The notes under the pieces were generated by a model. The model saw only the letters and a list, made by a program, of their open reading frames with translations. It ran no database searches and was not told where the DNA came from. Below, in pieces: positions 7,581-61,721 of a DNA stretch of 64,000 nt. Where the stretch lies: assembly GCA_944384825.1 (NCBI GenBank), contig CALWUT010000021.1, positions 4,399 through 68,398 on the forward strand. The letters run 5' to 3'. The position numbers and the translations under genes were made by a program. Numbering within the stretch: position 1 is the stretch's first letter; each line of letters opens with the position of its first letter. This stretch comes from an uncultured Clostridia bacterium (lineage in GTDB: Bacteria > Bacillota > Clostridia > Oscillospirales > Acutalibacteraceae).

Positions 7581-8823
7581 TTTTTATTTCACCTCCACTT
7601 TCGACATTCGTAATTTGGTTTGTATTTGGTGTATAGATTTCTTTAGTAACGGGATTAAATAACACGTCTTGAAGCCCCAGCTTTACAAAATTAAGTCCAA
7701 GCGGTTCAAGGTTTTCTAAATATCTGCACTCATCTATCTGCATCAGGTTTGATTCCAAAGCTGTTTTGTATGCTTCAAAACGTGTCTTGATATCGCCTTT
7801 GATGATTTCTTTTGTGTCAAAGGCAAAATATAAGGACTTCTTTTCTTTTTCAAGAAGTAAGTCCCGATTTAAAGCACATTCAATTGCGGTTAATATGGGC
7901 ATAATGGCAGTTTTTATAAATGTTTCCCAATTAAAATCTATTGGTACTCCAAAGACGTCTAAAATTGAGTTGCTAAGAGAAGTTTTGTTTTCATTTAGCT
8001 GCATTTCGGTTGAGGTACTGCTTGCCTCCTTAAAATCAAGATTATCGTTTAAAACAATCACGTTGTTTTCCGTATTGCAGTAAAGTTCTTGCCACGCTCG
8101 TTTTAAGTTGTCCATTGATTCTTTTGTAATTTTTTTCTCAGCTTTTATGAACCCTTTTTTGCTCCCGCCTGTTGAAACAAGATTTTGCTCAAATTTTAAT
8201 GTCAGATAAGAAGTCTTTAAAAGTTCTCTATTTTCCTCAATGATTCCTACTCCTTGTGCTCCGTTGGTGGTTGACCTCAAAACCTTTAAAAATTCAAATG
8301 GTTTGTACGTTTTTTCCACAAACTATAATGTTGTAATCCTTAAAAATTGGGTCGGAATTTTTACTTATCATTACATTTCCGCAATCTACATAATTGAGCG
8401 ATTTCACAATATTTCTTCGCTTGTTAATAAACACATAAGCTTTTCCTTCAAGCAAGTAATCTCTTACTATTGCTTTTTTAAGCTGCACACCGTCAAGCGT
8501 GTCTTTCGTGTGTCATTTAAGAGGTCGCATCGTGAATCAGGGATTTCAGTCGTTTTTCTTTTTCCGTCGCCACGTTCGCTTTGTTCGCATGGTGAACCCA
8601 TTCGGGCTGACGACTTCGTCGCCATAAATTCTTCTTTGTAAAGTTTTATCGGAATCATGGAAACGGTATCTGAAATCAAATTCACGCACCTTGCCACCGC
8701 CGGAATGTTGAGAGCCTCAGTTTTGCCAATCGTATTTTCACTTAAAATGCTTTTGAGCAATAAGTCATCAGTTATATTCTGATTGGTTTCCATACTTCTT
8801 TTCTTAAAGTTAAATAATTTCAT
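7558..8823 (-). pseudogene. phage portal protein (HK97 family), two frameshifts
   Basis: Three consecutive ORFs (8467-8823, 8294-8488, 7558-8319) in frames 1, 2, 1. Together they read as one portal protein (...ALNIPAVARCVNLISDTVSMIPIKLYKEE... LKKAIVRDYLLEGKAYVF... PFEFLKVLRS...). Confidence 0.8.
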
Positions 8824-8838
8824 ATTTCACCTCTTTCT

Positions 8839-10524
8839 TCAATACTGCACTGTCCAACCACTGTCATCAAAAATAATGTCCTGCTGCAGGAGATAAATTG
8901 CGTTAATCAGTGCGATCACCATATCCACTTTTCCGCTTGATTTTTTCTTAGTTACATACCGATTCATGTTAGTATCGTAAGTACACCTTGCATTTTCAAA
9001 ATTGATTTCAAACAAAGTGTTATTTTCATATTCAAACTCCTCATTTGTTATTTTCTCAGACAAAAGTTTTGTTGGCGGGTGGAGTGTATCGCTGTGCTGC
9101 CGAATCTCTACTGTATTATATTTTTGATTCCATTTCTGAGCACTTGAAATTGCGTTATAGCGGTCAAACCCTATTGCTTTGACTGTCACGTTGTACTTTT
9201 CCTCAATTTTAAAGACAAAATCTTCAACCACACCATAATCAATAGTTTTGTTGTCACAAGCTATGCATTTTCTATCATTAATAAATCTTCTGTAATCAAT
9301 TTTCTCAAATTTATTTTTCTCATCAATTCGGCCTTCGGGTATAAAACAAATAACGTCAGTGAGGATTTTGCCATCTTCTTCGGCACATATCGCAACTGCT
9401 GTATTATCGTTACTCATTGACAAATCAACCCCAACATAGACCTCACGACCTGCCCAATCAATTTTATTTACCCTGCAATTTTGTAAATCTTTGATGTCGA
9501 TAAAACTTTCTGTTCCGGCACCTTGATATATGATATTGCAGTGCTTAGTCAAAAAGTTTTCTCTCGCCGATTCAACCGTTATCGCCCTTGCTCTCTTTTT
9601 TATTAAATCTTCCCATATTTCGGGAATTTCTAAAGCTACGGGGTTTGCGTGTTTTAAAATCATGTCATCGGGTACCCAATTTTCTGTATCATCGGGCTCA
9701 TATAAAAGAGAAAAGGCAGTTTCGTCATCTTGAACTCCATCTAAAACTTTTTTGGCATAATTTACTTCATCTTCAAATGGATTGTTTGCATTTGGATATT
9801 TAGTTGAAATTATGCAGCCAAGCTTGTTTAAAATGTTAGGCTGCCCCGACCGCATGGCTTCTATTGCATAACTATTTGGTAAAGCTCCAACTTCATCAGC
9901 TAAAAATACATTCGGGAGCTTTCCATCCATTCGGGAATTACTGTAATTTAGCGGAATATACTTGCTGTCAAGCAAAGAAAATTCTATATAATCACGCAAT
10001 ATTTTAAATCTCGGTACTGTGTTTCTGTAATAAATAATCGGGCTTGATTTTAGTATTTATTCAATTGCTGTTTTAACTTCTCTTGATAAAGCTCCGTCAG
10101 GGGCAACCGAATAAAATTTAGAGAATTTCGGCTCTAATAAAAATAAGAGTATAAAAACCGTTGCAATTGTAAAGGTTTTAAAATTCTTTCTGCCGACTTC
10201 CAAAATCACGGTTTCATACCTTCGTTTTTGAGGATTCTCCCTGTAAACAATGCAGAGTGCCGATGCATACAAGATCCACTGATACCCGCATGAGCACTCA
10301 TAAATGCTTTGTCCTGCTTTTAGACCTCTCGGCATGACAAGTAGCTTTAAAATGCTGTCAATTTTACTTAGTTTTTCTTCATCAATAAAATATTTGTCTG
10401 ATTTTCCGTCGCAAATCTCTATAAATTTTTCGCATTGTTTTATGACGTATCGGGGAGCAGGAATTTCACGATTTATCACACCTTTCGCATATTTATAACT
10501 TCTGTGTTCTTCAATCTTTATCAC
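8839..10524 (-). pseudogene. terL: terminase large subunit interrupted by one in-frame TAA
   Basis: ORFs 10057-10524 and 8839-9999 share one frame. The reading is ...EVKTAIE-TAA-ILKSSPIIYYRNTVPRFKILRDYIEF.... TAA lies at 10057-10059. The nuclease half (VYVGVDLSMSNDNTAV) is present. Confidence 0.8.
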
Positions 10525-10566: not shown

Positions 10567-10920
10567 TTAAATTTTACCTTGTAAAATTTGTAAAAGTGGG
10601 TCAGGTTCGTCTCCGTCTTGGCGGTCTCGAAGCGTTGTGATTATCTTCATAAGTGTTACGACTGTCTTATTTGCACTGTCAGTTGTTCGGTTATAGTCAG
10701 AAATAGCTGGATGAGAATACACATTTTTTCTGCCTTTGACATATTCCTTTGTCACTAGGATTCCATCTTGCTTAATGGTTTTTTCCAAGTCATTAAGTAT
10801 CTGAAGCTGTACTTGATATCGTTTATAAGTCGTAAGAAAAAAGAAATTTTGCTCTACATCGTGTTTTTCGGCAATTCGCAAAATTTCCTGTGCTTGTTCG
10901 TTTAATGATATTTTATTCAT
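10567..10920 (-). CDS. terminase small subunit (P27 family)
   Basis: 117 aa. YKRYQVQLQILNDLEKTIKQDGILVTKEYVKGRKNVYSHPAISDYNR is typical of the P27 family. Immediately upstream of terL. Confidence 0.7.
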   Translation of the reverse strand: MNKISLNEQAQEILRIAEKHDVEQNFFFLTTYKRYQVQLQILNDLEKTIKQDGILVTKEYVKGRKNVYSHPAISDYNRTTDSANKTVVTLMKIITTLRDRQDGDEPDPLLQILQGKI

Positions 10921-12203
10921 GTCCTTGTCCTTCTTTTATTTTTACCGCTGTTTTTCCTGTAAGTTTTTCCCACATACCTATAATTACATCAACATATTTA
11001 GGTTCAAGCTCCATCATATAGAACTTTCTATTTAACTTTTCACAAACAATAAGTGTTGTACCTGTACCACCAAATGGGTCTAACACGCTTTCTGTCGAAA
11101 AATTTTCCACAAAGTAACTCGCCAATTCCATCGGGAATGTAGCATTATGTATGTCGTGATATTTATTCCTTGTCTGCTTTTGAAAATGTATTATGTTTTT
11201 TAAGGTTCCTCTAAACTGTTTTGTTCCAATGGCACGATTCTCTTTTGAACTGAAAACATGGATATATTCAAATTCGCTGTTTAAAACATTCTCAGCCATA
11301 GAGGGTTGCGACAACATTTTATTCCAAATAATTGTGTCGGCATAAATGCCTTGATTTTTATATAGCAAATCTATTAATGCAATTTTGTTATTACTTATAG
11401 ATTGAATATTCATAAATGAATATTTGCTAAAAATCATCGTATGGTGTAAATATTCATTAAGAAAATTTAAATATTGCTCAGTAGTTTTATTGTCGTCATT
11501 TCCATTGTATTTTGTTGTTTTTGCATTTTAGATTCTGTTGGAGTTTTGCCCGCATTATAAGGTGGAGAAGTAAAAGTAATGTCAGCAATTTTATCGTTCA
11601 TAAGTTTTTTATGTCATCTATATCTGTGCTATCGCCACACATCAAGCGATGATTTCCAAGTTTATAAATATCGCCTAATTTTGCTTTAGGCTTTTCAGGA
11701 ACATCAGGAATCTCATCTTCAACTAGTTCTTGATGGTTTTCATCTTTAAAATCTAATTTTTCAAAACCAAAATCTGACATATCAAAATTGACTATACTAT
11801 CAAGCTCTAAATTCAGCGTATCAAAGTCAAATTCCGTGTTCATTGTAAGTTTATTGTGAGCCAAAATATATGCCTTTTTCTGTTGTTCGTTCAGATGTGT
11901 CAGCCTGATAAGTTCAACTTCTTTAAAATCAAGCTGTTTTAATGCTTCCAATCTTCCATGTCCCTCGATTATTACATTGTTTTCATCAATCGCAATTGGG
12001 TCATTTTTTCCAAATTCTTCAATTGATTTTTTAATCTGTTCAATTTGTTCAGTTGGGTGAAGCTTCGCATTGTTTTCATACGGTTTAATTTCTTCTATAC
12101 TTATTTTTTCTATTTTCACATCTTTGCTCCTTTTCAAAAAATTCACATTTAGTACATTCGGTGTAAATGTAGTGGCGCTGTCGGTGTTAAGCGTTTTTAT
12201 CAA
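10913..12203 (-). pseudogene. ParB-like nuclease domain / DNA methyltransferase fusion, two frameshifts
   Basis: N-terminal part is ParB-like (PYENNAKLHP...IIEGHGRLEAL). Frameshift at the A6/T6 run near 11605-11610. Middle frame carries ADITFTSPPYNAG (motif IV). Second shift near 11525. C-terminal part carries VLDPFGGTGTT (motif I). Confidence 0.75.
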
Positions 12204-15889: not shown

Positions 15890-17290
15890 TTATACGCGAA
15901 ATGCTCCACCGCTAGGTGGTCTCCAATCTCTTTTCACTTTTGATTCTTCATACTTTCTATCCAGTTCTAAAAAAGTCATATAATTTCCATTAAAATTCAT
16001 CATCACAATACCTGAACTCCCACGTCTGTTAAGTGCTACGTCTACACCAATTGTTTTTGACTGAACCACTCCGAGTTCGTTAAAATTCTTCTCTATGCAC
16101 CACATTAAAATCAGTTTTGAACAGTTCTGCTCGATTTCTCCGCTATCTCTCAAATCGCATGGTGATGGTATTTTTTCTTCATCGTTAGTACGATTGAGCT
16201 GTGATAAACATAAAATCGGAACAGAAAGTTCAGACGCTAAAATCCTGAGTTCTCGGCTTATTGCTCCAACTTATTGATTGCGGTTATCATGCTTTTTAGT
16301 AGACTTCATGAGTTGCAAGTAATCAACAACTATAAGCCCTAAGTTTTTAATCATCCGGCACTGAGTCCTAATTTCATTTACTGAAATATTAGGCTTATCA
16401 TTGATTTTTAGAGGTAAAATTTTTAAATCCGTCATTACTTTTTCGATTCTTGATAATTCCTCATCTCTTATAGTCTGAGATCTTTTTTTATCGTTGAATC
16501 GTCTGTCAATGAGCGTATTCATCGGAATTTTTGCTATGCTTGAAAGCAATCTTCCGTAAATTTCAGAGCTTTCCATTTCCATACTGTAAAAAGCAACTGT
16601 TTTGTCTAACTTTGCCACATTCAGGGCTAGCGATAGGGCAAAAGCTGTTTTACCTATTTTGGGGCGAGCTGCCAAAATTATAAGATTGCCCGCTGACATT
16701 CCCTTCAAAATTTCATCAAGTTTAGAAAACCCTGTATAAGAGCGATTTTCTAAATCTTTGTCAGTATTTCTGTAACTTTCTAAAACCTGACATCCAATGT
16801 TATCTATGCTTTGAAGTTGCTTTTTGCATTGCTCGGAAAGTAAATCATAAAGCTCTCCCATAACTTCATCGGCGACTTCATTTGCGTTTTCTGCGTGAGC
16901 ACCGTCAAAAGTAAGTTTCATTCCGATTTGCTGAAGTTTTCTTGCTTTTGAGCTGTCAATTACAGTCTCGGCATAATTTTTGATTTGAATGATAGACGGA
17001 ACAAGCTCGGCACAGTCAAGCAGCAACCTCTTAGTTTGTACTTCATCATAATTCCCTTTAGCTGTGAGCTTTTTCAGTACCGAAACAAAATCAATGTGTT
17101 TCCCTTCACTCGATAGCTCCAAAATTGCTCTGTAGCAGTCTTTCAGATTATCAAAATAAAAATGCTCCGGCTTTAATGTGTCTATCACATTTACCAAAGC
17201 TCTCTCATCAATTAATATAGAACCGACAACGCACATTTCAGCACTTTGTGCTATTTCATTGTATGTTTCCATTTTAACCTCCGTTCCCAT
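15890..17290 (-). pseudogene. dnaB: DnaB-type replicative helicase interrupted by one in-frame TAA
   Basis: ORFs 16271-17290 and 15890-16153 share one frame. The reading is ...VVDYLQLMKSTKKHDNRNQ-TAA-VGAISRELRILASELSVPILCLSQLNRTNDEE...DLRDSGEIEQ. Walker A ARPKIGKT is present. TAA at 16271-16273. Confidence 0.8.
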
Positions 17291-17358: not shown

Positions 17359-18084
17359 TTACCCGCCCATTCGCATCCTGAGCTGTTGATATTTTTCTCT
17401 GAGTTTCTTGCCGGACAAAATATTGCTTCGCCAAAAGCTATCTTTTTGACACCACTCTATAACTTCAGCAATATCATCAGCATCAATTTTGTCCCTGCGA
17501 ATCATCAAGTCGAAATCTTTAGCCCAACGCTGACGTTGCGATTCGCTCTGCGGAAACTTTGGATTGTTTTCTGCAATATTCTTTTCTAAAAATCGAGCCA
17601 GCAAATATGGGTCGCTGTCAGCTCCAAAAATTTTCCTGTTACGAGCTCTGTTGTCGTTGATTTTTGTCCTTTCAAAAATCTGCGACGAAGATATATTATT
17701 AATTGTATTATTCTCTGCGAAGTTTTCTTCGTGGGGTTCAGGAACTTTTTTTCGTGAGGGTATGGAAGTTTTCATCAGGTGGGTATCGAAATTTGCTTCC
17801 ACCTTCAAACATCTCATTTTGACTTTCTGATTGCTGTTATCAAGAACAAATTCTGCTGAAATATATCCAGCATCGCAGAGTGATTTTATCCAAGTTGAAA
17901 TTGTCCGTTTGCTTACAGAATAAAGACGACTGAAATAGTCATTAATTGCCCAGCAGTAGCCTTTCTCATTGCAAAGTGCCGTTATTTCACCATAAAGAAG
18001 TTTAGCACTCGGAACAACATTACTATCATATCTGACAGTCGCCGGAATTACTGTATAATATGATTTTTTAATATCCGAATTCAT
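17359..18084 (-). CDS. phage replication initiator / replisome organiser with N-terminal HTH
   Basis: 241 aa. AKLLYGEITALCNEKGYCWAINDYFSRLYSVSKRTISTWIKSLCDAGYI is a winged-helix pattern. Sits upstream of dnaB. Confidence 0.55.
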   Translation of the reverse strand: MNSDIKKSYYTVIPATVRYDSNVVPSAKLLYGEITALCNEKGYCWAINDYFSRLYSVSKRTISTWIKSLCDAGYISAEFVLDNSNQKVKMRCLKVEANFDTHLMKTSIPSRKKVPEPHEENFAENNTINNISSSQIFERTKINDNRARNRKIFGADSDPYLLARFLEKNIAENNPKFPQSESQRQRWAKDFDLMIRRDKIDADDIAEVIEWCQKDSFWRSNILSGKKLREKYQQLRMRMGG

Positions 18085-18490: not shown

Positions 18491-18909
18491 AAATTAATCT
18501 CCTTAATTGTTATTGTTGTTGCCGGAATTTCAGCGTATTTTTTCTCAAAATAAATTCTGCAAATTTGAGCGTCATCGTGATAGCAAACTCCGTTTAATGC
18601 ATCTAAAATAATCTTGATGATATTATCTGAATCGGGTTTCTTTGTCGGCAAAATATTGCCTTTCAGCATCGAATTTTTTAATTTTTTACTCACGCTTTTC
18701 GGGATAGAAAAAAGAGCAGTTATACTTATTTCAAGCGGTGTATCTCTTTCAAAAAATATCTTTGAAACCGCAGTATAACTTGCTCTAATCAGTTTTTCAT
18801 ATTCAGTTGTCTGTTTCGGCGTATAAGTGATTTTTCGACCTTTAATCCGGCTCATACGAGGTCGCTGTTTGCCCCTCGGATTTCCCGATACTATGAACTT
18901 TATTTCCAT
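18487..18909 (-). CDS. rusA: RusA-family Holliday junction resolvase
   Basis: MEIKFIVSGNPRGKQRPR...TKKPDSDNIIKIILDALNGVCYHDDAQI is the RusA signature. Start chosen at 18909 rather than 18951. Confidence 0.75.
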   Translation of the reverse strand: MEIKFIVSGNPRGKQRPRMSRIKGRKITYTPKQTTEYEKLIRASYTAVSKIFFERDTPLEISITALFSIPKSVSKKLKNSMLKGNILPTKKPDSDNIIKIILDALNGVCYHDDAQICRIYFEKKYAEIPATTITIKEINL

Positions 18910-19549
18910 TTTTTGTCTCATTTCTATGTGATATCTGGTTAAGCCCTTCAAGAATCTCTATTCGCTGTTTTTGTGTCAATTCCTTGAAACTTTTAACGTT
19001 GTACCGATTTAAAAGAGCTGCGTATAACTTATCAGGTTCTTCAAAACTTTTTACAACACTTTTTAAAATACTTGCATCCTTTGCTGTGATTTTTTCAGTC
19101 TCGATTTCCGGCAAATCTTCTCCCGAATAGATGTAGAGCCCCAAACCGAACATAGCTAAATTCTTGACCAAACACCGCATTATTGTTTTGTTCACGTCAA
19201 ACATTGTTGCAGGTTCGACTGGAATATCTTTTCTGAATTTCGTGTCATAAGTGTAACCCTCAGACTTCATTGCTTTGTTGGCTCCATCCATGACGGGCAA
19301 CCACATTGTATGTGTTAATCCGTTAATCGTGACGTCAGTAAAGACCATATATCCGACACCTTCATCAAAAAAATAGGGAAGCTGCTTTTCTCCAAATTGG
19401 TGAATTTTATATGTTGCAGTTGGATATTGTTTTTTCACCGCAGCCCACGCATACGGCCAAGATAGATACGTCAAATCCTTTTTTCTTTCAATATGGTCGT
19501 TTACATTGATTTCAAATAATGTTTCAAAAATTGATTTATTTTCATTCAT
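18842..19549 (-). CDS. Rad52-like single-strand annealing protein (Sak/DUF1071 type)
   Basis: LTYLSWPYAWAAVKKQYPTATYKI...WLPVMDGANKAM...RCLVKNLAMFGLGLYIYSGEDLP matches the Sak family pattern. The 3' end overlaps rusA by ~68 nt. Confidence 0.65.
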   Translation of the reverse strand: MNENKSIFETLFEINVNDHIERKKDLTYLSWPYAWAAVKKQYPTATYKIHQFGEKQLPYFFDEGVGYMVFTDVTINGLTHTMWLPVMDGANKAMKSEGYTYDTKFRKDIPVEPATMFDVNKTIMRCLVKNLAMFGLGLYIYSGEDLPEIETEKITAKDASILKSVVKSFEEPDKLYAALLNRYNVKSFKELTQKQRIEILEGLNQISHRNETKNGNKVHSIGKSEGQTATSYEPD

Positions 19550-34326: not shown

Positions 34327-35922
34327 TTATTTTAACAGATCCCACAGCAAATTAGCTAAAGAATTAATATTAAATATCTTTCCAATTATAGTAGCTACAA
34401 CTTTTATCCAGTTTTCAAAACTGAAATTAGAATTTTTGAGCTCATCTAATGTTAGAGTAATTTCTTGGGATATATTTAAGCTACGATTCACTAATTCATA
34501 CTTATTCCAATAAGCGGCAGTTAAAGATTTTACTATTATACAAATTGTTTTTTTGAATCCATTCAATTCTGAAAAATCGTCATCTTTAATTGAATATATT
34601 AATTCAAAAATGTCTTTGAATTGCGCAGCGTATTTATAGGATAATCTTTTTAGAATATTGATTATATTTTCTTTATTTTCAAAACTTATATTATTTTCTT
34701 GCAAAAGCTCAAAAAGAGAATCTGAAAACTCTTTCAAAGAAGATTTATCTGCAAGTTTTAGAATATATTGGACTGTTTCCTCGATCATATCACTTTCAGG
34801 AGCAAGCTCAGAAATATTAAACTTTTCCGCTGATTTTTTAAAATAAAACTCATTTACTTCCCATGAAAAAGTATCATGCTGCGAAATGCCTGACGAAAAA
34901 CTATTAATACATTTAAAATTATCGTCATGTGATTCATTCATTATTCTTCCTATTACCGATGATTGTGGAGCAAAAGTAAGCAATTTATTTTTTAGTTTTT
35001 TATAGGTATTAAAAAGAGTGCTTCTAATATCTGCTCTTAGTCCCGGACCATCAAAGTTGAAAATATTTATAATACTTTTCCTTATTTTAGAGCTTTCATA
35101 GGATGATTTCATACTTGCATAAACTGCCAGATTTCCGCCTTTTGAATGTCCTCCTATATAAAGCAATGAATTAGGATATAACTCACTTACTTTACATAAA
35201 TAATCTTTAGCGTCATTCTGAGAGGGAATTTCTTCTTTCCATGATAAATCAACGTCTTCTTTCCATCCCGCAAGAGTAGAATCGGTTCCGCGATACATAA
35301 CCGCTTTGTTTCCGTCATTAAGTGTAAAAGTAACTGCTGCAAACTGTTTAGGTTCAGGCTCTTTAATATCAACGTAATTGCCGGAAAAATCACTTATAGT
35401 TATTTCTTTATATCTTGGACACTCTGCTAAATATTTTAAAAGCCTTAATCGCCTTTCTAAGTATTTGTTTTCAGAATTACAGTTCTTAATATAAAATTCT
35501 GTATTATGTTTATCTTCATCATGTAAATATAAATCAGTCATATCTTTCTTTTCATTTATTATCGAAGATAAACCCTCATACCACTTTTTTAATGTTATAC
35601 CTCGACAAGGTGTGCTAGAATCTATACATGGAACCATACACATTGGTAAGTAAGAAACTGTAGATAATATCATAGCATCTACTTCGTTGAACGGAAAATC
35701 ACATGACATTTCCGGAATATTTTTTGCACTTTCAGAACTAAGTAAATCTAAAATTAACTTATTGCTATTATTTGAAGATTTAGCGCTCTTTAAATTAATG
35801 CTATTCATAGAGTCTTGAAATACCTCTTGAGCTTTGACATTTCCAAAGCTTGTTGATGAAAATGTTGAAAGTAAATGTAAAAATATAACAAAATTAGTTT
35901 TACATTTTAAATTAAATTTCAT
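34327..35922 (-). CDS. secreted Mbeg1-like (DUF2974) alpha/beta hydrolase, lipase-like
   Basis: Signal peptide MKFNLKCKTNFVIFLHLLSTFSSTSFG. Core AVTFTLNDGNKAVMYRGTDSTLAGWKEDV...YIGGHSKGGNLAVYASM matches the family, including the GHSxG nucleophile elbow. Confidence 0.75.
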   Translation of the reverse strand: MKFNLKCKTNFVIFLHLLSTFSSTSFGNVKAQEVFQDSMNSINLKSAKSSNNSNKLILDLLSSESAKNIPEMSCDFPFNEVDAMILSTVSYLPMCMVPCIDSSTPCRGITLKKWYEGLSSIINEKKDMTDLYLHDEDKHNTEFYIKNCNSENKYLERRLRLLKYLAECPRYKEITISDFSGNYVDIKEPEPKQFAAVTFTLNDGNKAVMYRGTDSTLAGWKEDVDLSWKEEIPSQNDAKDYLCKVSELYPNSLLYIGGHSKGGNLAVYASMKSSYESSKIRKSIINIFNFDGPGLRADIRSTLFNTYKKLKNKLLTFAPQSSVIGRIMNESHDDNFKCINSFSSGISQHDTFSWEVNEFYFKKSAEKFNISELAPESDMIEETVQYILKLADKSSLKEFSDSLFELLQENNISFENKENIINILKRLSYKYAAQFKDIFELIYSIKDDDFSELNGFKKTICIIVKSLTAAYWNKYELVNRSLNISQEITLTLDELKNSNFSFENWIKVVATIIGKIFNINSLANLLWDLLK

Positions 35923-37387: not shown

Positions 37388-38845
37388 TTATAAATTTTTT
37401 AGAATCTCTGCAACTACTGATCTTTCATCAAAGGGATATTTTACTCCTTTAATTTCTTGATAATCTTCATGCCCTTTTCCTGCCAGCAGTATCATATCCC
37501 CGCTTTTAGCATTTTCAATGCAATATTTTATTGCTTCTTTTCTATCCGGCACTATAACGTAATCTCCTTTAGTCTTATCCATACCTTTTTTGATGTCGTT
37601 AATAATTTCAAGTGGATCTTCAAATCTTGGATTATCGCTTGTAATTACGCATAAATCTGAAAGTCTGCCTGCTGTTTCCCCCATTTCAAACCTGCGGACT
37701 TTAGGTCTGTTTCCACCGGCGCCAAAAAGAGTTATTATTCTTTTGGGATTATATTCTCTTAGGGTTTTAAGTACGTTTTCCATACTTAAAGCGTTATGAG
37801 CATAATCAATAAATACAGAATAATCTTGCTTATGAACTACTAGTTCTACTCTGCCTTTAATTTTAATTTTTTTAAGTCCGGAAATTATATTTTTCTTTTC
37901 TATTCCCAAGTGATTACATAAAGATGCAGCTGCTAAAGAATTATATACATTGAATTTCCCGGGTACAGAAATAAAAATATTATCTATATTAAGCTTACCT
38001 TTAAGATTAAAACTCACTCCTATAATATTTTCTTTATTGACTGCTTTTAAATCTTTTGCCAAATAATCTGCCGGATTATTTATTCCAAACGTAACTATCT
38101 TACAGCTTCTATCTTTTATAATTCCGAAATAGTTTTCATCGTCAATATTTATAAACCCTGTTTTACATTTTTTGAACAGCAAACTTTTAGCTTGTAAATA
38201 TTCTTCATAGCTTTCATGTTCGTTTTTTCCTATATGATCATGTGAAAAGTTAGTAAATATTCCATAATCAAAAACAAAGAAGTCTAAACGATTTCGAGAA
38301 AGACCTAATGATGAAGCTTCAATTATAGCAAATTCATATCCTTTTTGTACCATTAAATTCAAATATTTTTGAACTTCGTAAGATTCAGGAGTTGTATTGC
38401 GAAGAGGAATAACTTCGTTATCTAATATAACTCCCATAGTACCTATAATTCCTGATTTTATTTTTGCACTTTTTAATATCGACCTTATCATAAAAGATGT
38501 TGTAGTTTTTCCTTTAGTACCGGTTATACCTATAGTTTTTATTCTTTCAGCTGGGTGATCAAAAAAATTAGCTGACATATGTGCAAGAGCAGTTCTGGTA
38601 TTCTCCACTACAATAGTTGTAACTCCAGGTATATTTACTTCTTTACTTGCTACTATTACCTTAGCTCCTGCATTTACAGCGTCGTTAATGAAATTATGGC
38701 CGTCCGAGCCATATCCTTTTAGACAAACAAAAATGCTGTTATTTTTTACTTTACGAGAATCATATACTAAATCTGTTATTTCTATATCAGTATTTCCGTG
38801 AATTGAACTGAAATTTAAGTCTTTGATTATAAAATTTAAATTCAT
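37388..38845 (-). CDS. murE: UDP-N-acetylmuramoyl-L-alanyl-D-glutamate--2,6-diaminopimelate ligase
   Basis: GITGTKGKTTTSFMI. The DNPR motif (TSDNPRFEDP) is associated with meso-DAP-adding enzymes. Confidence 0.85.
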   Translation of the reverse strand: MNLNFIIKDLNFSSIHGNTDIEITDLVYDSRKVKNNSIFVCLKGYGSDGHNFINDAVNAGAKVIVASKEVNIPGVTTIVVENTRTALAHMSANFFDHPAERIKTIGITGTKGKTTTSFMIRSILKSAKIKSGIIGTMGVILDNEVIPLRNTTPESYEVQKYLNLMVQKGYEFAIIEASSLGLSRNRLDFFVFDYGIFTNFSHDHIGKNEHESYEEYLQAKSLLFKKCKTGFINIDDENYFGIIKDRSCKIVTFGINNPADYLAKDLKAVNKENIIGVSFNLKGKLNIDNIFISVPGKFNVYNSLAAASLCNHLGIEKKNIISGLKKIKIKGRVELVVHKQDYSVFIDYAHNALSMENVLKTLREYNPKRIITLFGAGGNRPKVRRFEMGETAGRLSDLCVITSDNPRFEDPLEIINDIKKGMDKTKGDYVIVPDRKEAIKYCIENAKSGDMILLAGKGHEDYQEIKGVKYPFDERSVVAEILKNL

Positions 38846-39060
38846 AATTTTCCCTTCGGACTTTAAAATTATTAATTAGCCTCTTAACTATATCAAATTT
38901 GACCATTTATCGCAATACTTTAAATTATTATATCTACTATATAATAATACTCTGCTTCACTATACTTAATGTCTTTTATAGCGAATAAGCCAAAATTTGA
39001 TAACCGAATTTAACTCTTTCCATATTTTTTATTTTTTATATAAAAAAATAAATAAAAGTA

Positions 39061-39089
39061 TTGACAATTTATTTTATATAGTGTACAAT
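39061..39089 (+). promoter_or_regulatory. sigma-A promoter of the Nif11-leader peptide gene
   Basis: TTGACA, 17 nt spacer, TACAAT. Confidence 0.55.
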
Positions 39090-39122
39090 TTGATTATTCT
39101 AATTTAAAGGAGTGTTGTAATT

Positions 39123-39554
39123 ATGGAAAATGTAACAGAAAAGATTAACCAGCTTTTAAGAAGTCAGGATTTTACCGATCAGCTTGGTAATGCTCAATCA
39201 CAAGATGATATTAAGAAGCTTTTTGCCAGTAATGGAGTAACATTAAATGATGAAGATGTAAATGGTTTTGCGCAGGAATTGCAGAAAAGAGCTTTAAATC
39301 TTTCTGGCTCCCAGCTTGACGAAATATCAGGAGGCAAGTGCGCTATTGGTACAATAACGGAAGGTGTTGGAGATATAGCCAAAGGAGTAGGACGCGGAAT
39401 CGGATATACTGCCGGCGGAGTAGCAAAAGGTGTTGGTTCTTTTGCTTATAATACAGGTAAGGGAGTAGGAAAAATTGCCTGGGGAACGGTTAAAATTCCT
39501 GCCAGTGTAGTTGTTGAAGCAGGAAAAGGATTCTGGAAAGGATTAACTAATTAA
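39123..39554 (+). CDS. Nif11-type leader peptide precursor with GG cleavage motif and Gly/Lys-rich repeat core
   Basis: AAAGGAG RBS. The 71-aa leader MENVTEKINQLLRSQDFTDQL...DIKKLFASNGVTLNDEDVNGFAQEL...LSGSQLDEISGG/K resembles Nif11-derived leaders. The core carries KGVG repeats. Confidence 0.65.
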   Translation: MENVTEKINQLLRSQDFTDQLGNAQSQDDIKKLFASNGVTLNDEDVNGFAQELQKRALNLSGSQLDEISGGKCAIGTITEGVGDIAKGVGRGIGYTAGGVAKGVGSFAYNTGKGVGKIAWGTVKIPASVVVEAGKGFWKGLTN

Positions 39555-39580
39555 GGTTTCAAATAAAAAGCAAATGTGTT

Positions 39581-39623
39581 CTGTAGCAAAGCTGTTGCGC
39601 TTTGTTACAGATTTTCGTTTTTT
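39581..39623 (+). terminator. rho-independent terminator
   Basis: CTGTAGCAAAGC-tgttgc-GCTTTGTTACAG (one G-U pair), followed by ATTTTCGTTTTTT. Confidence 0.65.
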
Positions 39624-39641
39624 AACACTTATTATTTAATC

Positions 39642-39833
39642 TTAATAGGTATCTTTTTCATGTGAATTAAAGTTTTCGTCCGATATGTACTCTAAAATAT
39701 CCTCTACTTTACATTTTAATAATTTACAAAGAATATCAATAAGATTTGTAGATATTCCGCCGTTGTGTTTTAACCTATGAACAGTATGACTGCTAAAACC
39801 GTACTTTTCAATTAACTTGTAAATTAAAATTTT
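39642..39833 (-). pseudogene. promoter-less, start-less 3' two-thirds of an XRE-type HTH gene
   Basis: Frame opens right after a TAA (39834-39836). Reads KILIYKLIEKYGFSSHTVHRLKHNGGISTNLIDILCKLLKCKVEDILEYISDENFNSHEKDTY. No start codon. Confidence 0.6.
39728..39814. repeat. left copy of an 87-bp perfect inverted repeat
   Basis: The reverse complement of 39728-39814 is identical to 39984-40070. Homology continues a few nt further with 2 mismatches. Confidence 0.85.
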
Positions 39834-39922
39834 TTATTTGTAGTTTAATCGTATGGTTCATATTTGAAGTATGTATAAATTTGTGCCTATGTTTTATTCT
39901 TTAATATAAGGGGGTGATAAAT

Positions 39923-40084
39923 GTGATTGTGTATGATCCACTTTGGAAAACTTTAAAAAGTAGAGGAGTAACAACTTATAAGCTAATTGAAAAGTACGGT
40001 TTTAGCAGTCATACTGTTCATAGGTTAAAACACAACGGCGGAATATCTACAAATCTTATTGATATTCTTTCTAAAATTGTATAG
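39923..40084 (+). CDS. short XRE-type HTH protein (53 aa, C-terminally shortened variant)
   Basis: GGGGGTG RBS and GTG start. VIVYDPLWKTLKSRGVTTYKLIEKYGFSSHTVHRLKHNGGISTNLIDILSKIV. Not in the ORF track because it is under 60 aa. Confidence 0.55.
   Translation: MIVYDPLWKTLKSRGVTTYKLIEKYGFSSHTVHRLKHNGGISTNLIDILSKIV
39984..40070. repeat. right copy of the 87-bp perfect inverted repeat
   Basis: taattgaaaagtacggttttagcagtcatactgttcataggttaaaacacaacggcggaatatctacaaatcttattgatattcttt. Confidence 0.85.
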
Positions 40085-40141
40085 TAACAGTAAGACGTTT
40101 TTATTGCAGTCATTAGATGACTTTAAAAGGAGACTGTGTAA

Positions 40142-40477
40142 ATGAAAGTGGCAATAGTAGGATCACGACGATTAACAAATATCACAATTTCAAAATACAT
40201 ACCTAAGGAAACAACACAGATAATAACCGGAGGAGCTAAAGGAATTGATACCTTGGCAGAAAAGTACGCAGACGAAAATAACATAACTAAGACTATAATT
40301 AAGCCTGAATATAAAAAATACGGAATTCACGCCCCACTTATAAGAAATAAAGAGATAGTAGAAAAAGCAGATTTAATAATAGCAATTTGGGACGGAGAAT
40401 CTAAAGGAACTAAATCTGCTATTGATTACGCAAAAGAGCTTAACAAAAAAATAAATTTATATATTTTAAATATTTGA
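40142..40477 (+). CDS. SLOG-fold protein (DUF2493 / DprA-Smf-like Rossmann module)
   Basis: 111 aa. VAIVGSRR...IITGGAKGIDTLAEKYA...RNKEIVEKADLIIAIWDGESKGTKSAIDYA. AAAGGAG RBS. Confidence 0.6.
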   Translation: MKVAIVGSRRLTNITISKYIPKETTQIITGGAKGIDTLAEKYADENNITKTIIKPEYKKYGIHAPLIRNKEIVEKADLIIAIWDGESKGTKSAIDYAKELNKKINLYILNI

Positions 40478-40598
40478 AAATAAAAATTACTCTTTTGACT
40501 TTAAGTTAAGAGAGTTTTTTCAGCTAAAAATTCACTACTTAACGTTTATCTCCATAAGCTGTTAAAGAAAATATTTATAAAATTTTAATCTAAGAGAG

Positions 40599-40859
40599 GT
40601 GAAAGAATTGAAAACCACGACTTTACTTCCTTTAAATAAAGCTTACCCAGGAAAATGCTATAAGGTCGTAGATATACGTTTAAATAACAATCATCGCAGA
40701 AGAATTCTAGATTTAGGACTTATCCCTAAGACTACTCTTAAAGTATTGCAAAAAAGTCCTTTAGGAGATCCTGTGGCATATTTAATCCGAGGAAGCGTCA
40801 TCGCTTTAAGAGAAGAGTATACTAAAAAAGTCATTGTAAAGGAATTAGAAACAAATTAA
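40599..40859 (+). CDS. feoA: ferrous iron transport protein A
   Basis: LNKAYPGKCYKVVDI...RRRILDLGLIPKTTLKVLQKSPLGDPVAYLIRGSVIALR. Start may be the TTG at 40608. Confidence 0.8.
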   Translation: MKELKTTTLLPLNKAYPGKCYKVVDIRLNNNHRRRILDLGLIPKTTLKVLQKSPLGDPVAYLIRGSVIALREEYTKKVIVKELETN

Positions 40860-40898
40860 TTATATTCTAGACTTTTTAGCATCGGAGCTGAAGTTATA

Positions 40899-43058
40899 GT
40901 GAAGAGTAATAACATATCAACAATTGAATTGAGAACTCCGAAAAATAAAACATCTATTTGTAAAAATTGCAAGATTATAGCAGTAGCCGGAAATCCAAAC
41001 GTTGGAAAAAGTACAGTATTTAACGCACTTACAGGCCTTAATCAACATACAGGAAATTGGCCGGGTAAAACTGTAGAACGTGCCCAAGGAAAGTACACTT
41101 ATAATGAAAAAGAGTATAGTCTTATCGATATCCCGGGAACTTACTCACTATCATCTAATTCTCCGGAAGAAGAGATTGCAAGAGATTTTATTTGTTTTGA
41201 AAATCCGGACGCCGTAATTGTAGTAATGGATGCTACATGCTTGGAAAGAAACCTTAATTTAACTCTTCAAATTTTAGAACTTACCCGCAATGTAGTAGTA
41301 TGCTTAAATTTAATAGACGAAGCGAAAAGAAAAAATATTACTATAGATAAAGACGAACTCTCTTTACAGTTAGGAGGCGTTCCTGTAATAGAAACTAATG
41401 CGAGAGATAAAGTAGGAATTAAAAACTTAATGGACGCGGTAGAAAGTGTGAGCGAAAGAAAAACTAAAGTATTTAATATAAAAACAAATTATGGTGAATG
41501 TTTGGAAAATTCAATAGAAAAAGTGCAGAAATCATTGATTCCGGATAACCATAATCAATATTTAAGTAACTATATAGATTATAGATGGCTGAGTATTCGA
41601 CTGTTAGAAGAAGATTCAAGCTTTAAAAAATCTTTTAAGACTTATTTTGGCGAAGACATTTGTGAAAATCCTGAAATTTTACAAGTGATTTCCAATGAAA
41701 GAAAAAAATTAAAACTTGAAAATATAAATTCTCGGACTTTAAAGGATAAAATAGTAGAATCGGTGGTTAAAAAAGCTGAAACCATATATAAAATTTGTGT
41801 AAGTGAAAAAAATGCAGATTACCAATGTGCTGATAGAATTATTGATAAATTCCTCACTTCCCCATTAACCGGTTTCCCTACTATGATTATTCTTCTTTTG
41901 GGTATATTTTGGATAACAATTACAGGTGCCAACTATCCTTCGGAATTAATTTCAAGCGTACTATTTGGATTTGAAGAAAAATTGATTGAGATTTTTAGTA
42001 CATCCGAAGTTCCTCCTTGGCTTTACGGAATTTTAATTTCAGGAGTTTACAGAACACTAGCATGGGTAGTTTCCGTAATGCTTCCGCCTATGGCCATATT
42101 TTTTCCGTTATTTACACTACTTGAAGACGTAGGATATCTGCCGCGAATTGCTTTTAATCTAGACAGTATTTTTAAAAAATGCGGTTCACATGGAAAACAA
42201 GCTTTAACAATGTGTATGGGATTTGGATGCAATGCTTGCGGAGTCACAGGCTGCCGAATAATAGATTCGCCGCGTGAAAGATTAATTGCAATTTTAACCA
42301 ACAATTTTGTACCTTGTAATGGAAGATTTCCTATACTAATCTCAATAATAGGAATGTTTTTTATTGGACAGTCGTTTACTATTGCAAATTCAGTATTATC
42401 TACCTTGATATTAACGTTAACAATTATATTTGGAGTAGGCATAACTTTTATAGTTTCAAAATTACTGTCTCTTACTTTACTTAAAGGCATTCCTTCGTCT
42501 TTCATACTGGAACTTCCGCCTTACAGAAAGCATCAATTTGGAAAAGTTCTTATAAGGTCGCTGCTTGATAGAACCATTTATGTTCTGGGAAGAGCAGTAG
42601 CAGTAGCTGCGCCTGCAGGACTTATAATATGGATAATGGCTAATACATATATAAATCAAATGAGTTTATTAGCGTACTGTTCTAATTTTCTGGATCCATT
42701 TGCAAAAATGATAGGTCTTGATGGAGTAATACTAATGGCGTTTATACTTGGATTTCCGGCTAATGAAATAGCTTTTCCAATAATTATAATGAGTTATATG
42801 TGCGGAGATTGTTTAATTAATGTACCTACTGCTTCAGAACTTCACACACTTTTAGTATCACATGGTTGGAATTATACAACTGCAATTTGTGTAATGCTTT
42901 TTTCTCTCATGCATTTCCCTTGCGGAACAACCTGCTGGACAATAAAAAAAGAAACAGGTAGTCTAAAATGGACTGCTCTAGCTTTTTTACTCCCTACTGC
43001 TGTCGGAATAATAATATGCTTTATTGTCGCAAATTTAATGAGATTAATAGCTATTTAA
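40899..43058 (+). CDS. feoB: ferrous iron transport protein B
   Basis: 719 aa. G-domain AVAGNPNVGKSTVFNALTG...DIPGTYSL, then a polytopic membrane domain. Confidence 0.9.
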   Translation: MKSNNISTIELRTPKNKTSICKNCKIIAVAGNPNVGKSTVFNALTGLNQHTGNWPGKTVERAQGKYTYNEKEYSLIDIPGTYSLSSNSPEEEIARDFICFENPDAVIVVMDATCLERNLNLTLQILELTRNVVVCLNLIDEAKRKNITIDKDELSLQLGGVPVIETNARDKVGIKNLMDAVESVSERKTKVFNIKTNYGECLENSIEKVQKSLIPDNHNQYLSNYIDYRWLSIRLLEEDSSFKKSFKTYFGEDICENPEILQVISNERKKLKLENINSRTLKDKIVESVVKKAETIYKICVSEKNADYQCADRIIDKFLTSPLTGFPTMIILLLGIFWITITGANYPSELISSVLFGFEEKLIEIFSTSEVPPWLYGILISGVYRTLAWVVSVMLPPMAIFFPLFTLLEDVGYLPRIAFNLDSIFKKCGSHGKQALTMCMGFGCNACGVTGCRIIDSPRERLIAILTNNFVPCNGRFPILISIIGMFFIGQSFTIANSVLSTLILTLTIIFGVGITFIVSKLLSLTLLKGIPSSFILELPPYRKHQFGKVLIRSLLDRTIYVLGRAVAVAAPAGLIIWIMANTYINQMSLLAYCSNFLDPFAKMIGLDGVILMAFILGFPANEIAFPIIIMSYMCGDCLINVPTASELHTLLVSHGWNYTTAICVMLFSLMHFPCGTTCWTIKKETGSLKWTALAFLLPTAVGIIICFIVANLMRLIAI

Positions 43059-59369: not shown

Positions 59370-59792
59370 CTAAACGAAATCATCATATTCACTGTTCCAT
59401 AGTTCTAGTGTTTGAGAAATTTCCGAAAATATTTCAGCATCTCTTTTATCTATATTACTTAATTTCCAATCAGTTGTTTTCAAATGAGTCATTTGATTTG
59501 TAAGAACAATTTTAGACTTAGAATATTTTTCTTTCTTTTTCTCAAAATACCCATCACCAGCTTGAATATTTAGTTTTTTCTCAAGCGGAAGTTTGTTACC
59601 AACATGCTTTATTTTTTCCTTTATAACTTCTTCGCTAACCTTAGCAAAATAAGAATTTTTATATTTATGAGGTAATATATGTTCTATTTTCCATTTTTTA
59701 GGTAAAAGACCATCTTGCAGATTATAGGCTAAAATTTTCAATATCATTGGTACGAGATATCGACTTGGCAATTTTAAATTTTCTTTTAGCAT
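59370..59792 (-). CDS. DUF1524 (GmrSD C-terminal HNH-like nuclease) domain fragment
   Basis: 140 aa. WKIEHILPHK...HVGNKLPLEKKLNIQAGDGYFEKKKEKY resembles the DUF1524 motif. It lacks the DUF262 N-terminal half, so it is probably a remnant. Confidence 0.5.
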   Translation of the reverse strand: MLKENLKLPSRYLVPMILKILAYNLQDGLLPKKWKIEHILPHKYKNSYFAKVSEEVIKEKIKHVGNKLPLEKKLNIQAGDGYFEKKKEKYSKSKIVLTNQMTHLKTTDWKLSNIDKRDAEIFSEISQTLELWNSEYDDFV

Positions 59793-59851
59793 AGATATAT
59801 CATCTTATTTGAAGTTGAAGATAGGTGTAGAGGATTCTATGATACTGACAT

Positions 59852-60950
59852 TTAACTGTAAAATTTCAATTTTTCCTGCTCTTCATGTTCCCATAGTTCC
59901 TTACCTTTACCACCATAAAGCTGCTTCTCTACAGTAAACAATTTTTCTTTATATTCAAACTCAGACTTAAGAAGTGAATTTTTCTTTTCAAGCTCTAAAA
60001 TTTCTTTTATGTTACTTCCTATTTTGTCTCTTATAGCGGTAATTTGTGCCATGTATTCAAAAATTTTATTTTCTAAAAACTCCCTCATGTCTTTACTAAG
60101 AGACGGAGAAGATAGCATATTTTGTACTCTGCCTAAATTATAAGATAAAATTCTGAACTTCTGAGCTATTAAATCTGCCTCTTTTGCTTTCCCTTCAAGC
60201 GTCGTTACATGACCTAAAGCTTTAAGTCTTTTTTCTACAATATCAAACGGTATTTCAAGGTCCGATACCTTTTCTTTTAACTCATTAAGAGCTTTATTTG
60301 CCTCATTTCTTGGATTAGATGCAGTACTTCGAGAACTGTGAGGAGTGGATGAGCGAGTTCTACTAGCTCTGGGTATCGATGTCCTCGGCGTTCTTGGTGT
60401 TCGTGGAGTAGACGTTCTTGCCCTTGATCCACTCGAAGAACGCAAAACCTTACTTATTTACGCTTTGCTTGTGCTTAAAACATTGTCCATTAGCTGCTTA
60501 TAATTGTTATATGAAGAAACCGCAGCCTTAACCCCTTCGCTCGCTCCTGAATACTCGACCATGCCATCTTCATTAACTTTAAATCCCGTTAATGACTTTA
60601 ATTTATCAAATCTGTCCGCTAAAGCTAAATTATTATTTTTGATAGCATTTGTATGAGCATCAATAACTCCGGACTGCGACTCGGTATTTCCTGTTAATTC
60701 TCCGGTCGCAGCAGCTGCATCACGCTCGGCAGCAGCTAAAGCCTCAGTTAAAACGGAGTCAAGCATCGTAATTTGTGTATCTTGCATTTTTGCTGTAAGC
60801 ATATCTCTTAACGCTTGTTCATTTAACACTAATTGCCCATTTTCTACAGAAAGCAAAGAAATATATTCGCTGCCTAAAGATAAAAGACCTTCAGCGGACT
60901 TACTGGATGATGCTGATTCGGATAATAAGAATGGATTAAGTCTAAATTAT
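59852..60950 (-). pseudogene. 5'-truncated coiled-coil/tape-measure-like gene with in-frame TAA and an S/T/P/R-rich linker
   Basis: Frame opens after a TAA near 60950 with no start. Reads ...SAEGLLSLGSEYISLLSVENGQLVLNEQALRDML...STSKA-TAA(60458-60460)-ISKVLRSSSGSRARTSTPRTPRTPRTS... Confidence 0.55.
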
Positions 60951-61191
60951 GATTAATTTCAGCTATAATTTCTTTTGCTTCTCGTGTTATATTCAAACAC
61001 TTAATACTATCTCTTAACTCAAATGTTCTCTCGTAAATTTTTTGGAAATACGAAGAGCATACAATCTCATCAATTTTAGACTTTAAAGCATTTGCTATAC
61101 AATCTCCCAATCCATCATTTTCACTTATAGCTAATTTAGTTTGATTTAGTATATACTCCTCATGTTCTTCGATGCTGCTTACTTCTTTCAT
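60874..61191 (-). CDS. hypothetical protein (105 aa), third cassette position
   Basis: GGGGGA RBS before MKEVSSIEEHEEYIL.... Follows the third PINYPDGA-type junction remnant. Confidence 0.45.
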   Translation of the reverse strand: MKEVSSIEEHEEYILNQTKLAISENDGLGDCIANALKSKIDEIVCSSYFQKIYERTFELRDSIKCLNITREAKEIIAEINHNLDLIHSYYPNQHHPVSPLKVFYL

Positions 61192-61350
61192 TATTTGTCC
61201 CCCATAAAAATAAATAACCATACGTCGAACGTACAGTTATAGTAAATTTTCTTTAATTAAAAAATTATTTTATTTCTTGCTCCAAATTTTTAAACTCTTG
61301 CGCTCCATCAGGGTAATTTATTGGCGAATATGTGCTATGCTACTATGAGT

Positions 61351-61638
61351 TTATATTGTTCTATTCCATACTCTTACCTTAGTAATTACATCACGCAAAC
61401 GATACTTTCCCACCATATACTCTAAAACTTCGTCCGCATTTGCACAAATTTTCTCAGTTTCCTGTTTATTCGCTTCATATATTGCTATACCATTAGAATC
61501 CGCTACTATTCCATAAATTTTATCTTCCCATTCAAACTCTACTTCACTATTAGAACTCATTGCCCATTTAAATTCATTTATTGTCTTAAATCTATTTTCT
61601 TCAAAGTATTCATCATTTGGTACATTTCCATTATTCAT
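61351..61638 (-). CDS. 95-aa protein paralogous to the C-terminal module of the DUF4417 fusion
   Basis: NRFKTINEFKWAMSSNSEVEFEWEDKIYGI...ADEVLEYMVGKYRLRDVITKVRVWNRTI aligns with NRFETISEFKWCVDNGGEVEFEYNDVIYNI...AEEVLEYVIEGKKLREIIKDIIVWNRTL. Confidence 0.65.
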   Translation of the reverse strand: MNNGNVPNDEYFEENRFKTINEFKWAMSSNSEVEFEWEDKIYGIVADSNGIAIYEANKQETEKICANADEVLEYMVGKYRLRDVITKVRVWNRTI

Positions 61639-61721
61639 ATTAGCTACTCCTTCGTAACTTTTAAATTCAGGTGCTCCGTCTAGATAATTTATTGGTTAAC
61701 AGGTAATATGCTCATGCGAAT

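Follow-up and report, generated by a model that had tools for sequence, protein, structure and literature searches.

A 343-bp locus (both repeat arms counted) in the DNA of an uncultured Clostridia bacterium is probably a recurrently inverting, functional switch, a reading to which a probability of roughly 0.68 is assigned here. The DNA analyzed, hereafter the window, is a stretch of 64,000 nucleotides from a member of the Acutalibacteraceae (GenBank assembly GCA_944384825.1, contig CALWUT010000021.1, positions 4,399 to 68,398). The locus holds two inverted copies of the middle of a small helix-turn-helix (HTH) gene, and the segment between them carries the ribosome binding site (RBS) and the 5′ end, or head, of that gene. 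In the assembled orientation (state R), the head points toward a SLOG/DprA-like gene and runs into a partial decoy copy, which yields a stub. In the opposite orientation (state L), it would be joined to a copy that has a natural C-terminal tail and no start of its own, which would yield an intact regulator. A preliminary description of this sequence had proposed a candidate invertible switch. Support for that proposal comes from the conservation of the design in other lineages, the homogenization of the repeat arms, purifying selection on the startless tail, and a related lineage in the opposite orientation. The selection on the startless tail is the strongest argument for use of the intact gene.

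Structure of the Repeat and the Invertible Segment

The left arm (39728–39814, minus strand) and the right arm (39984–40070, plus strand) are exact reverse complements over 87 nucleotides, as first reported, and homology between the two sides extends at 96% identity over 103 nucleotides (39723–39825 and 39973–40075). The chance expectation for an exact 87-nucleotide inverted pair, given 64 kb of the composition of the window, is ∼3e-39. A 24-nucleotide core of the repeat occurs at two sites in the window, both in the arms, and had 0 matches in 100 shuffles. No second inverted repeat of comparable quality was found within the 64-kb window. The left arm encodes HTH codons 21–49 (LIEKYGFSSHTVHRLKHNGGISTNLIDIL) in frame with the natural tail, and the right arm is the decoy copy of the same codons. 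Both 87-nucleotide arms thus lie inside coding sequence, in the HTH reading frame, as is characteristic of the inverton class discussed at the end of this article.

The 169-bp segment between the arms (39815–39983) contains a block homologous to back-to-back divergent promoters, the RBS, HTH codons 1–20, and a remnant of codons 16–20 (KILIYK, minus strand, 39816–39833). RBS, start, and codons 1–20 (MIVYDPLWKTLKSRGVTTYK) occupy 39910–39982 on the plus strand, so that the head points right as assembled; the RBS is GGGGGTGA (39910–39917) and the GTG start lies at 39923–39925. The start column reads GTG, TTG, ATG, and TTG across four lineages. All of the parts that the preliminary description had placed in the segment were located there, and its claim that inversion would fuse the head in frame to the left copy was confirmed by an in-silico flip of 39815–39983, which creates a single open reading frame (ORF) of 77 codons.

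The Truncated and the Intact Regulator

Reading from the head through the right arm gives exactly the product previously described, a protein of 53 residues that ends in LSKIV, with its stop codon at 40082–40084. The residues SKIV and the stop (40071–40084, plus strand) form a tail whose sequence differs between lineages: the equivalent ends are KLNFII in lineage B and LDSEKLNFKKY in lineage C (see below), each followed by a stop. The tail beyond the left arm (39642–39727, minus strand) encodes codons 50–77 of the HTH_26 gene (CKLLKCKVEDILEYISDENFNSHEKDTY) and closes with a stop at 39642–39644; the first base of codon 50 is 39728, inside the arm. This is a natural C terminus comprising the end of helix 4 and helix 5. 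The left copy, whose frame opens on the minus strand after a TAA (39834–39836), reads KILIYK-LIEKYGF...DIL-CKLLKCKVEDILEYISDENFNSHEKDTY to the stop. As assembled, it has no start codon, RBS, or conserved promoter, which is the asymmetry expected of the inverton class. Its description as a startless copy with a natural HTH C terminus was therefore accurate, and homologues share the tail.

Several comparisons indicate which product is the natural one. The fused protein matches Pfam HTH_26 (PF13443) with 52.4 bits against a cut-off of 22, covering model positions 2–63 of 63, and the 53-residue stub scores 25.9 bits and covers positions 2–47 of 63. When the fused sequence was searched against 5.8 billion protein clusters, only eight relatives came up, seven of which (P0001–P0007) are full-length proteins of 68–81 residues that contain the tail CKxLxCKVEDIL. 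The HTH protein has a sequence relative in the Protein Data Bank (3tyr, E 5e-9). In an AlphaFold model (mean pLDDT 72.8) that was computed from an alignment of 8 sequences, the protein forms five helices (residues 6–13, 18–24, 29–36, 43–53, and 57–61), and among solved structures its closest matches are generic XRE regulators, for example ClgR, C.BclI, HigA, and CapH. On the basis of the HTH_26 coverage and the five-helix model, the stub is predicted to end inside helix 4 and to lack helix 5. The head, the core, and the left-hand tail together make up a natural protein, and the flipped state is the intact gene.

Conservation of the Design in Other Assemblies

The structure is reproduced in other assemblies of the same species. 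Two other metagenome assemblies (L070 and L071) match the window at 99.96–99.98% identity across 5 kb and share both its repeat and its orientation. These were among six same-species contigs retrieved by exact-protein look-up of two flanking genes; two of the six span the switch in the window orientation, and the other four (L072–L075) break at or just outside the arms.

The same arrangement recurs in two diverged lineages, whose DNA is 70–78% identical to the window. Lineage A (the window, L070, and L071) has an exact repeat of 87 bp, a spacer of 169 bp, and a 53-residue stub. Lineage B (L005, L076, L077, L078, and L081) has an exact repeat of 41 bp, a spacer of 164 bp, and a 42-residue stub, and lineage C (L004) a 30-bp repeat, a 205-bp spacer, and a 47-residue stub. 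In all three lineages, the head faces the SLOG gene and the startless copy with the natural tail lies on the opposite side. The closest named relative is L005, a metagenome-assembled genome labelled “uncultured Eubacteriales bacterium,” and it alone showed the repeat design among 65 HTH_26 loci in a scan of species-representative genomes (genome_contigs). A scan of JGI metagenomes with the fused protein (29 loci) yielded no repeat-bearing member, with a best match of 65%, and two scans of viral contigs yielded distant relatives only, at 30–45% identity. Phages often carry SLOG homologues, but the switch locus itself is not phage-borne.

A fourth lineage, D (L001 and L002), is the sole source of the opposite orientation. 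This related lineage, 84–93% identical, aligns collinearly with the flipped version along 700 bp and encodes an intact 80-residue protein (P0001) from a gene convergent with a 143-codon neighbor. Its middle segment is 92.6% identical to that of lineage B and is inverted relative to the tail. The comparison of orientation in other strains that had been recommended for this locus thus gave a flipped arrangement only in lineage D, which is supportive rather than decisive.

Selection on the Startless Tail and Homogenization of the Arms

The startless copy evolves as a functional coding sequence. Over codons 36–66, dN/dS is 0.027 between lineages A and B (Fisher p 1.6e-8), 0.034 between A and C (Fisher p 5e-8), and 0.128 between B and C (Fisher p 4e-4). 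The head (codons 2–20) gives ratios of 0.08–0.10 for the pairs among A, B, and C. Synonymous differences are near saturation (pS 0.49–0.70). The reading frame of the startless tail has been kept in three lineages, with no stops or frameshifts, and nearly all changes in it are synonymous. No conserved alternative start was found in the tail copy. For a fragment with no promoter, RBS, or conserved start codon to be under such strong purifying selection, it must, on the sequence evidence, either be joined regularly to the head or have been separated from it by an independent recent flip in each lineage. Either option would amount to recurrent inversion, with the intact arrangement regularly occupied. 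The conserved tail could also be explained by gene conversion from an intact HTH paralogue elsewhere in the genome; the window contains no further copy of the repeat core.

The arms tell a similar story. They are identical within each lineage and different between lineages, and lineage-specific bases are mirrored in both arms: AGC, ACTGTT, and AAACACAACGGCGGA in lineage A, AGT and ACGGTT in lineage B, and AGT and ACTGTG in lineage C. Between A and B, the orthologous tail copies show 8 differences in 87 positions, against 0 in 87 between the two arms of A. Had the arms evolved independently since the lineages split, the probability of observing no difference between them would be ∼3e-4. The mirrored bases, together with 0/87 versus 8/87 differences, indicate that the arms were homogenized after the lineages separated.

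Weighing Alternative Explanations

A number of observations weigh against a recurrently flipping, functional switch. Within the species, no flipped copy was seen, and the three assemblies that span the locus (window, L070, and L071) agree on one orientation; all resolved contigs of lineage B are likewise in state R. The sole state L contig, in lineage D, has a coverage of 1.4×, and L001 and L002 are identical with the same end base, so that they may derive from the same reads. Because these contigs stop 38 bp short of the expected position of the decoy arm, they do not demonstrate a decoy in lineage D, and the intact join may be a mis-join through the repeat. The database of 5.8 billion clusters contains no protein identical to the flipped product, the best match being 87%. 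The tail of lineage C carries E58Q at a family-invariant position, which hints at relaxed constraint there. The putative HTH promoter of the window agrees with consensus at 8 of 12 positions, under the threshold of the promoter scan. No intact recombinase was found in the 48 window ORFs scanned (see below), and identity over the full 87 bp goes beyond what site-specific recombination alone maintains.

Some of these points would be accommodated if the arms recombined only rarely, through unprogrammed RecA-type flips and gene conversion on evolutionary time scales, with the orientation effectively fixed in each strain and no role in phase variation. The lack of a recombinase in the 64-kb window, the single orientation per lineage in every assembly, the variation in arm length between lineages (87, 41, and 30 bp), and the end-to-end identity of the 87-bp arms, which points to homologous gene conversion, are all in keeping with such a history. 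It is nonetheless rather unlikely. Lengths of 30–41 bp are at or under the usual minimum for efficient homologous recombination, yet arms of this size have been kept perfect. The non-coding decoy has persisted over ∼25% sequence divergence, which suggests selection for invertibility, and the strong purifying selection on head and tail needs an intact state that is often occupied.

Purifying selection also bears on the idea that the locus is a fossil, in which a single ancient inversion killed the HTH gene, left a two-piece pseudogene, and gave the SLOG gene a captured promoter, with no flipping since. Such a history would explain why no resolved contig of lineages A, B, or C departs from state R, why the stubs differ in length and are unconserved, and why the SLOG-type promoter is degenerate in the window. 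A pseudogene, however, would not be expected to retain a startless tail with dN/dS of 0.03–0.13 at pS of 0.49–0.70 and with no stops or frameshifts in three lineages, nor arms that are the same within and different between lineages, and lineage D is in the opposite state; we consider a fossil improbable. An artefact of assembly or library preparation, in which a chimeric or hairpin join would have given rise to a spurious inverted repeat, deserves hardly any credence. The repeat does trouble assemblers, as the four same-species contigs from two samples (L072–L075) that break at or just outside the arms attest, but independent assemblies made with different software (L070 and L071) span the structure identically, the design is common to three diverged lineages, and both flanks are unique and syntenic. 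The initial concern about an artefact was thus not borne out, and recurrent inversion of a functional switch remains the preferred reading.

Candidate Recombination Mechanisms

The search for a recombinase consisted of Pfam scans of 48 ORFs of the window (all but one of those of at least 170 aa, plus several shorter ones). The sole recombinase-like ORF is a degenerate 135-aa C-terminal fragment of a Phage_integrase protein (63175–63582), which has stops upstream and lies 23 kb away, in agreement with the earlier remark that no recombinase is adjacent. Some known invertible loci also have no recombinase nearby (PMC9881135).

Lineages A, B, and C have in common a core of ∼22 bp, TTTTAGYAGTCATACNGTNCAT. 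If a dedicated enzyme is involved, the best guess is a recombinase encoded elsewhere in the genome that acts on this core, while homologous gene conversion would keep the longer arms the same. Such a trans-acting site-specific enzyme and a purely RecA-type mechanism are about equally probable, and the identity along the whole 87 bp implies, as far as sequence can indicate, homologous gene conversion. A Hin/Gin-type hix-like site in the arm (GAAAAGTACGGTTTT) was considered and rejected, as it is absent from the lineage C repeat.

A far more speculative proposal, to which we attach very little weight, is that the SLOG/DprA-like protein itself promotes recombination between the coding repeats, with no dedicated invertase. 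It is prompted by the membership of the RecA loader DprA in the SLOG fold family. The locus would then be a self-contained, self-regulating toggle derived from a phage-type cassette, alternating between a state in which the regulator is on and SLOG is controlled and one in which the regulator is destroyed and SLOG is constitutive. Under the same proposal, the toggle might serve bet-hedging, for example in phage defense or DNA uptake.

The SLOG Gene and Its Putative Promoters

The SLOG/DprA-like gene (40142–40477, plus strand; RBS 40126–40132) encodes 111 residues. Its product matches PF10686 (YAcAr) with 33.2 bits against a cut-off of 28.2 and phrog_289 with an E value of 5.5e-20, and falls just under the cut-off for DNA_processg_A (29.2 versus 29.6). 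No terminator was found between the truncated HTH ORF and the SLOG gene. A terminator-like hairpin at 40489–40515 (plus strand) closes the transcription unit formed by the HTH stub and SLOG. A second such hairpin (39580–39611, plus strand) lies between the 143-codon gene and the end of the HTH tail; being A-rich upstream and T-rich downstream, it could serve both of these convergent genes. No known RNA family was detected across 38800–41000 at E ≤ 1.

Promoter positions within the invertible segment were assigned by comparison with L202, the closest plain HTH/SLOG pair, in which no inverted copy is present. Its intergenic region contains two promoter-like sites, TTGAAC-17-TATAAT directed to SLOG and TTGGAA-18-TATACT directed to the HTH gene, and this two-promoter block aligns inside the invertible segment of lineages A–D. 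The putative HTH promoter of the window, TTGAAG-18 nt-TATGTT (39864–39893, plus strand), has the same position as TTGGAA-18-TATACT in L202. The SLOG-type promoter position (39850–39878, minus strand) has degenerate hexamers, TTATAC ... CATACG, and as assembled is aimed at the startless tail copy. The corresponding promoter is TGAACA-18-TATAAT in lineage B, where in the assembled state R it also faces the startless tail copy. The promoter scan reported no site at threshold inside the invertible segment of the window. Each arm also contains an outward promoter-like match, TTGAAA-17-CATACT, with 9 of 12 consensus positions (39783–39811, minus strand, and 39987–40015, plus strand); such matches in the region are at chance level (5 seen, 5.8 expected).

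Because the segment is homologous to a divergent intergenic region with two promoters, a flip would most likely swap which promoter faces SLOG. The preliminary description had held that the flip disconnects the SLOG gene, which is probably too simple. In the window lineage, its own SLOG-type hexamers being degenerate, SLOG may depend on the HTH promoter, and there the original statement may be nearly true.

Proposed Origin and Working of the Switch

SLOG genes of this family nearly always adjoin a small, divergent gene for a DNA-binding protein. The divergent partner is an HTH_26 gene in L202, an HTH_3/HTH_19 gene in L200, an RHH-like 60-aa gene in L116, a 57-aa gene in L201, and a 67-aa gene in the gap between phage TerL and portal genes in L082–L085. 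HTH_26 genes also accompany a 156-aa SLOG-like protein in L086, L009, and L032. The L202 proteins are 74% (HTH) and 68% (SLOG) identical to those of the window, and its HTH_26 gene is intact, encodes 81 residues, and diverges from SLOG across 119 bp with no decoy. One SLOG homologue, 74% identical, lies between phage TerL and portal genes (L083:389–730) next to a divergent 67-aa gene, which suggests that regulator-SLOG cassettes travel as phage morons.

We infer from these comparisons that the ancestral state was probably a plain divergent HTH/SLOG pair with back-to-back promoters. A partial inverted copy of HTH codons ∼17–53, the decoy, would then have been inserted between the promoter block and the SLOG RBS, and the promoter block and the HTH head would thereby have become able to flip. 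Through recombination of the decoy with its counterpart in the real gene, the 169-bp piece would turn over and take both back-to-back promoters, the HTH RBS, and codons 1–20 with it.

In state L, the HTH promoter and head would join the core and natural tail to encode the 77-residue, five-helix regulator, and the SLOG-type promoter would face SLOG through the decoy, an arrangement reminiscent of the ancestral regulated pair. In state R, the head would join the decoy, so that only the 53-residue stub is made and the regulator is destroyed; the HTH promoter would read via the stub into SLOG, with no terminator until 40489–40515, and the second promoter would face the startless tail. The switch would thus toggle the regulator on and off and change the promoter that drives SLOG. 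The promoters are putatively assigned, and we infer that flipping may be frequent enough for phase variation; reversible switching within one population would presumably accompany it.

Neighboring Genes and Other Features of the Window

The left neighbor of the switch, which is conserved in L076 as well as in lineages A, C, and D, encodes a 143-aa glycine-rich protein (39123–39554, plus strand) containing the double-glycine-like motif …LDEISGG|KCAIG…. No Pfam, NCBIfam, or PHROG entry matches this protein, which may be the precursor of a secreted peptide. A Nif11-type leader, considered as a possible assignment for this protein, was set aside as unsupported, there being no Pfam or NCBIfam match. 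Strains of lineage B have the same SLOG protein and 99.3% DNA identity rightwards, yet different left neighbors: MurE and the 143-aa gene in L076, and a GHL10 hydrolase in L077, L078, and L005. The breakpoint (L076:2392) lies just past the terminator of each neighbor, ∼70 bp beyond the HTH stop; a strain-level rearrangement thus adjoins the switch in this lineage. On the other side, the right ends of L070 and L071 coincide at window position 42481, inside feoB, which hints at a strain-variable or repeat boundary. The feoB region of L077 has two ORFs (395 and 309 aa) in place of one of 719 aa.

Farther from the switch, positions ∼1–21600 of the window are a prophage remnant. It includes genes for a capsid protein (5726–6538), an S78 prohead protease (6915–7580), a partial portal protein (7558–8319), a partial TerL (8839–9999), an N6_N4 methylase (10913–11437), DnaB (16271–17290), an HTH_36 protein (17359–18084), and a Sak single-strand annealing protein (18842–19549). 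No integrase was found in this remnant. A 340-aa ORF (30465–31487, minus strand) has a C-terminal RING finger (zf-RING_2, E 1.6e-12, residues 289–333), which is unusual for a bacterium. Other genes encode a 531-aa Mbeg1-like protein (34327–35922, minus strand) and a 921-aa protein with GT2 and GT8 glycosyltransferase domains and several ricin-type lectin repeats (44043–46808, plus strand). The cluster at 59370–63582 (minus strand), which consists of an ORF with a GmrSD_C nuclease domain (59370–59792), a DUF4417 protein (61722–62804), and the degenerate tyrosine-recombinase (integrase) fragment described above, resembles the margin of a decayed mobile or defense island.

Significance

Inversion switches are best known for controlling surface structures and the specificity of restriction enzymes; at this locus, the targets would be a small transcription factor and the promoter wiring of a SLOG gene. 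The SLOG family has been linked to nucleotide sensing and to conflict between phages and their hosts. If flipping occurs as proposed, the natural on and off states would give a handle on the function of the SLOG gene. The locus is tiny and defined at the level of sequence, and its origin is visible in the plain pair of one relative and the pair with decoy of others. It also illustrates a read-free way to detect invertons, in which purifying selection on a startless fragment and concerted evolution of the repeats point to ongoing flipping. The many uncultured gut Clostridia that are known from assemblies only would be open to the same kind of analysis.

Comparison with Known Inversion Systems

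Short invertible promoter segments are well known from fimS (FimB/FimE), Salmonella hin, the RecV switches of Clostridioides difficile, and the Mpi-type invertons of Bacteroides. For the C. difficile and Bacteroides switches, the recombinase gene can lie at a distance. The present locus resembles these systems in that a putative promoter segment of a few hundred base pairs between inverted repeats would select which neighbor is transcribed. Their repeats, however, are non-coding and usually 9–40 bp long, whereas here they are coding and in frame, so that a flip either restores an ORF or cuts it short, and a pair of back-to-back promoters seems to exchange targets.

In topology, the locus appears closest to the sap switch of Campylobacter fetus, in which one promoter on an invertible segment reportedly lies between opposed genes that share 5′ coding sequence and inverts in a recA-dependent manner. 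In both cases, a promoter segment would flip between homologous coding repeats of head-to-head copies, and no adjacent dedicated invertase would be needed. The dimensions are different. The sap repeats are said to be ∼600 bp long, with a segment of kilobases and full alleles on both flanks; here the arms measure 30–87 bp and the segment 169 bp, with a stub on one side. The plain HTH_26/SLOG pairs (L202, and also L086, L009, and L032) have the same regulator and SLOG families and a homologous promoter block, but they have no inverted partial copy and are hence unable to flip.

Gene-altering programmed inversions have been described as having a long repeat, a short distance between coding sequences, and asymmetry, meaning that one copy lacks whatever lies between the transcription start and the first repeat (Milman et al. 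2023, PMC9881135). The present locus is alike in its coding repeats, its asymmetry, the length of its repeat, and the short distance between coding copies, and also in that a flip changes the protein made from one start. It differs in several respects. The target is a small HTH regulator, and this class is listed as depleted among genes associated with predicted inversions, with a ratio of 0.69 in the enrichment tables of that study. The second “allele” is a stub of 4–11 codons, so that flipping would turn the product on or off instead of altering its specificity. What flips here is the 5′ end together with the promoters, whereas in the known cases it is usually the variable 3′ ends, and no recombinase gene is nearby. 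On structure, the locus falls within the category of the “partial intergenic inverton” (Chanin et al., bioRxiv 10.1101/2023.03.11.532203), and it would, by its architecture, be a new instance of an established type of bacterial inversion switch.

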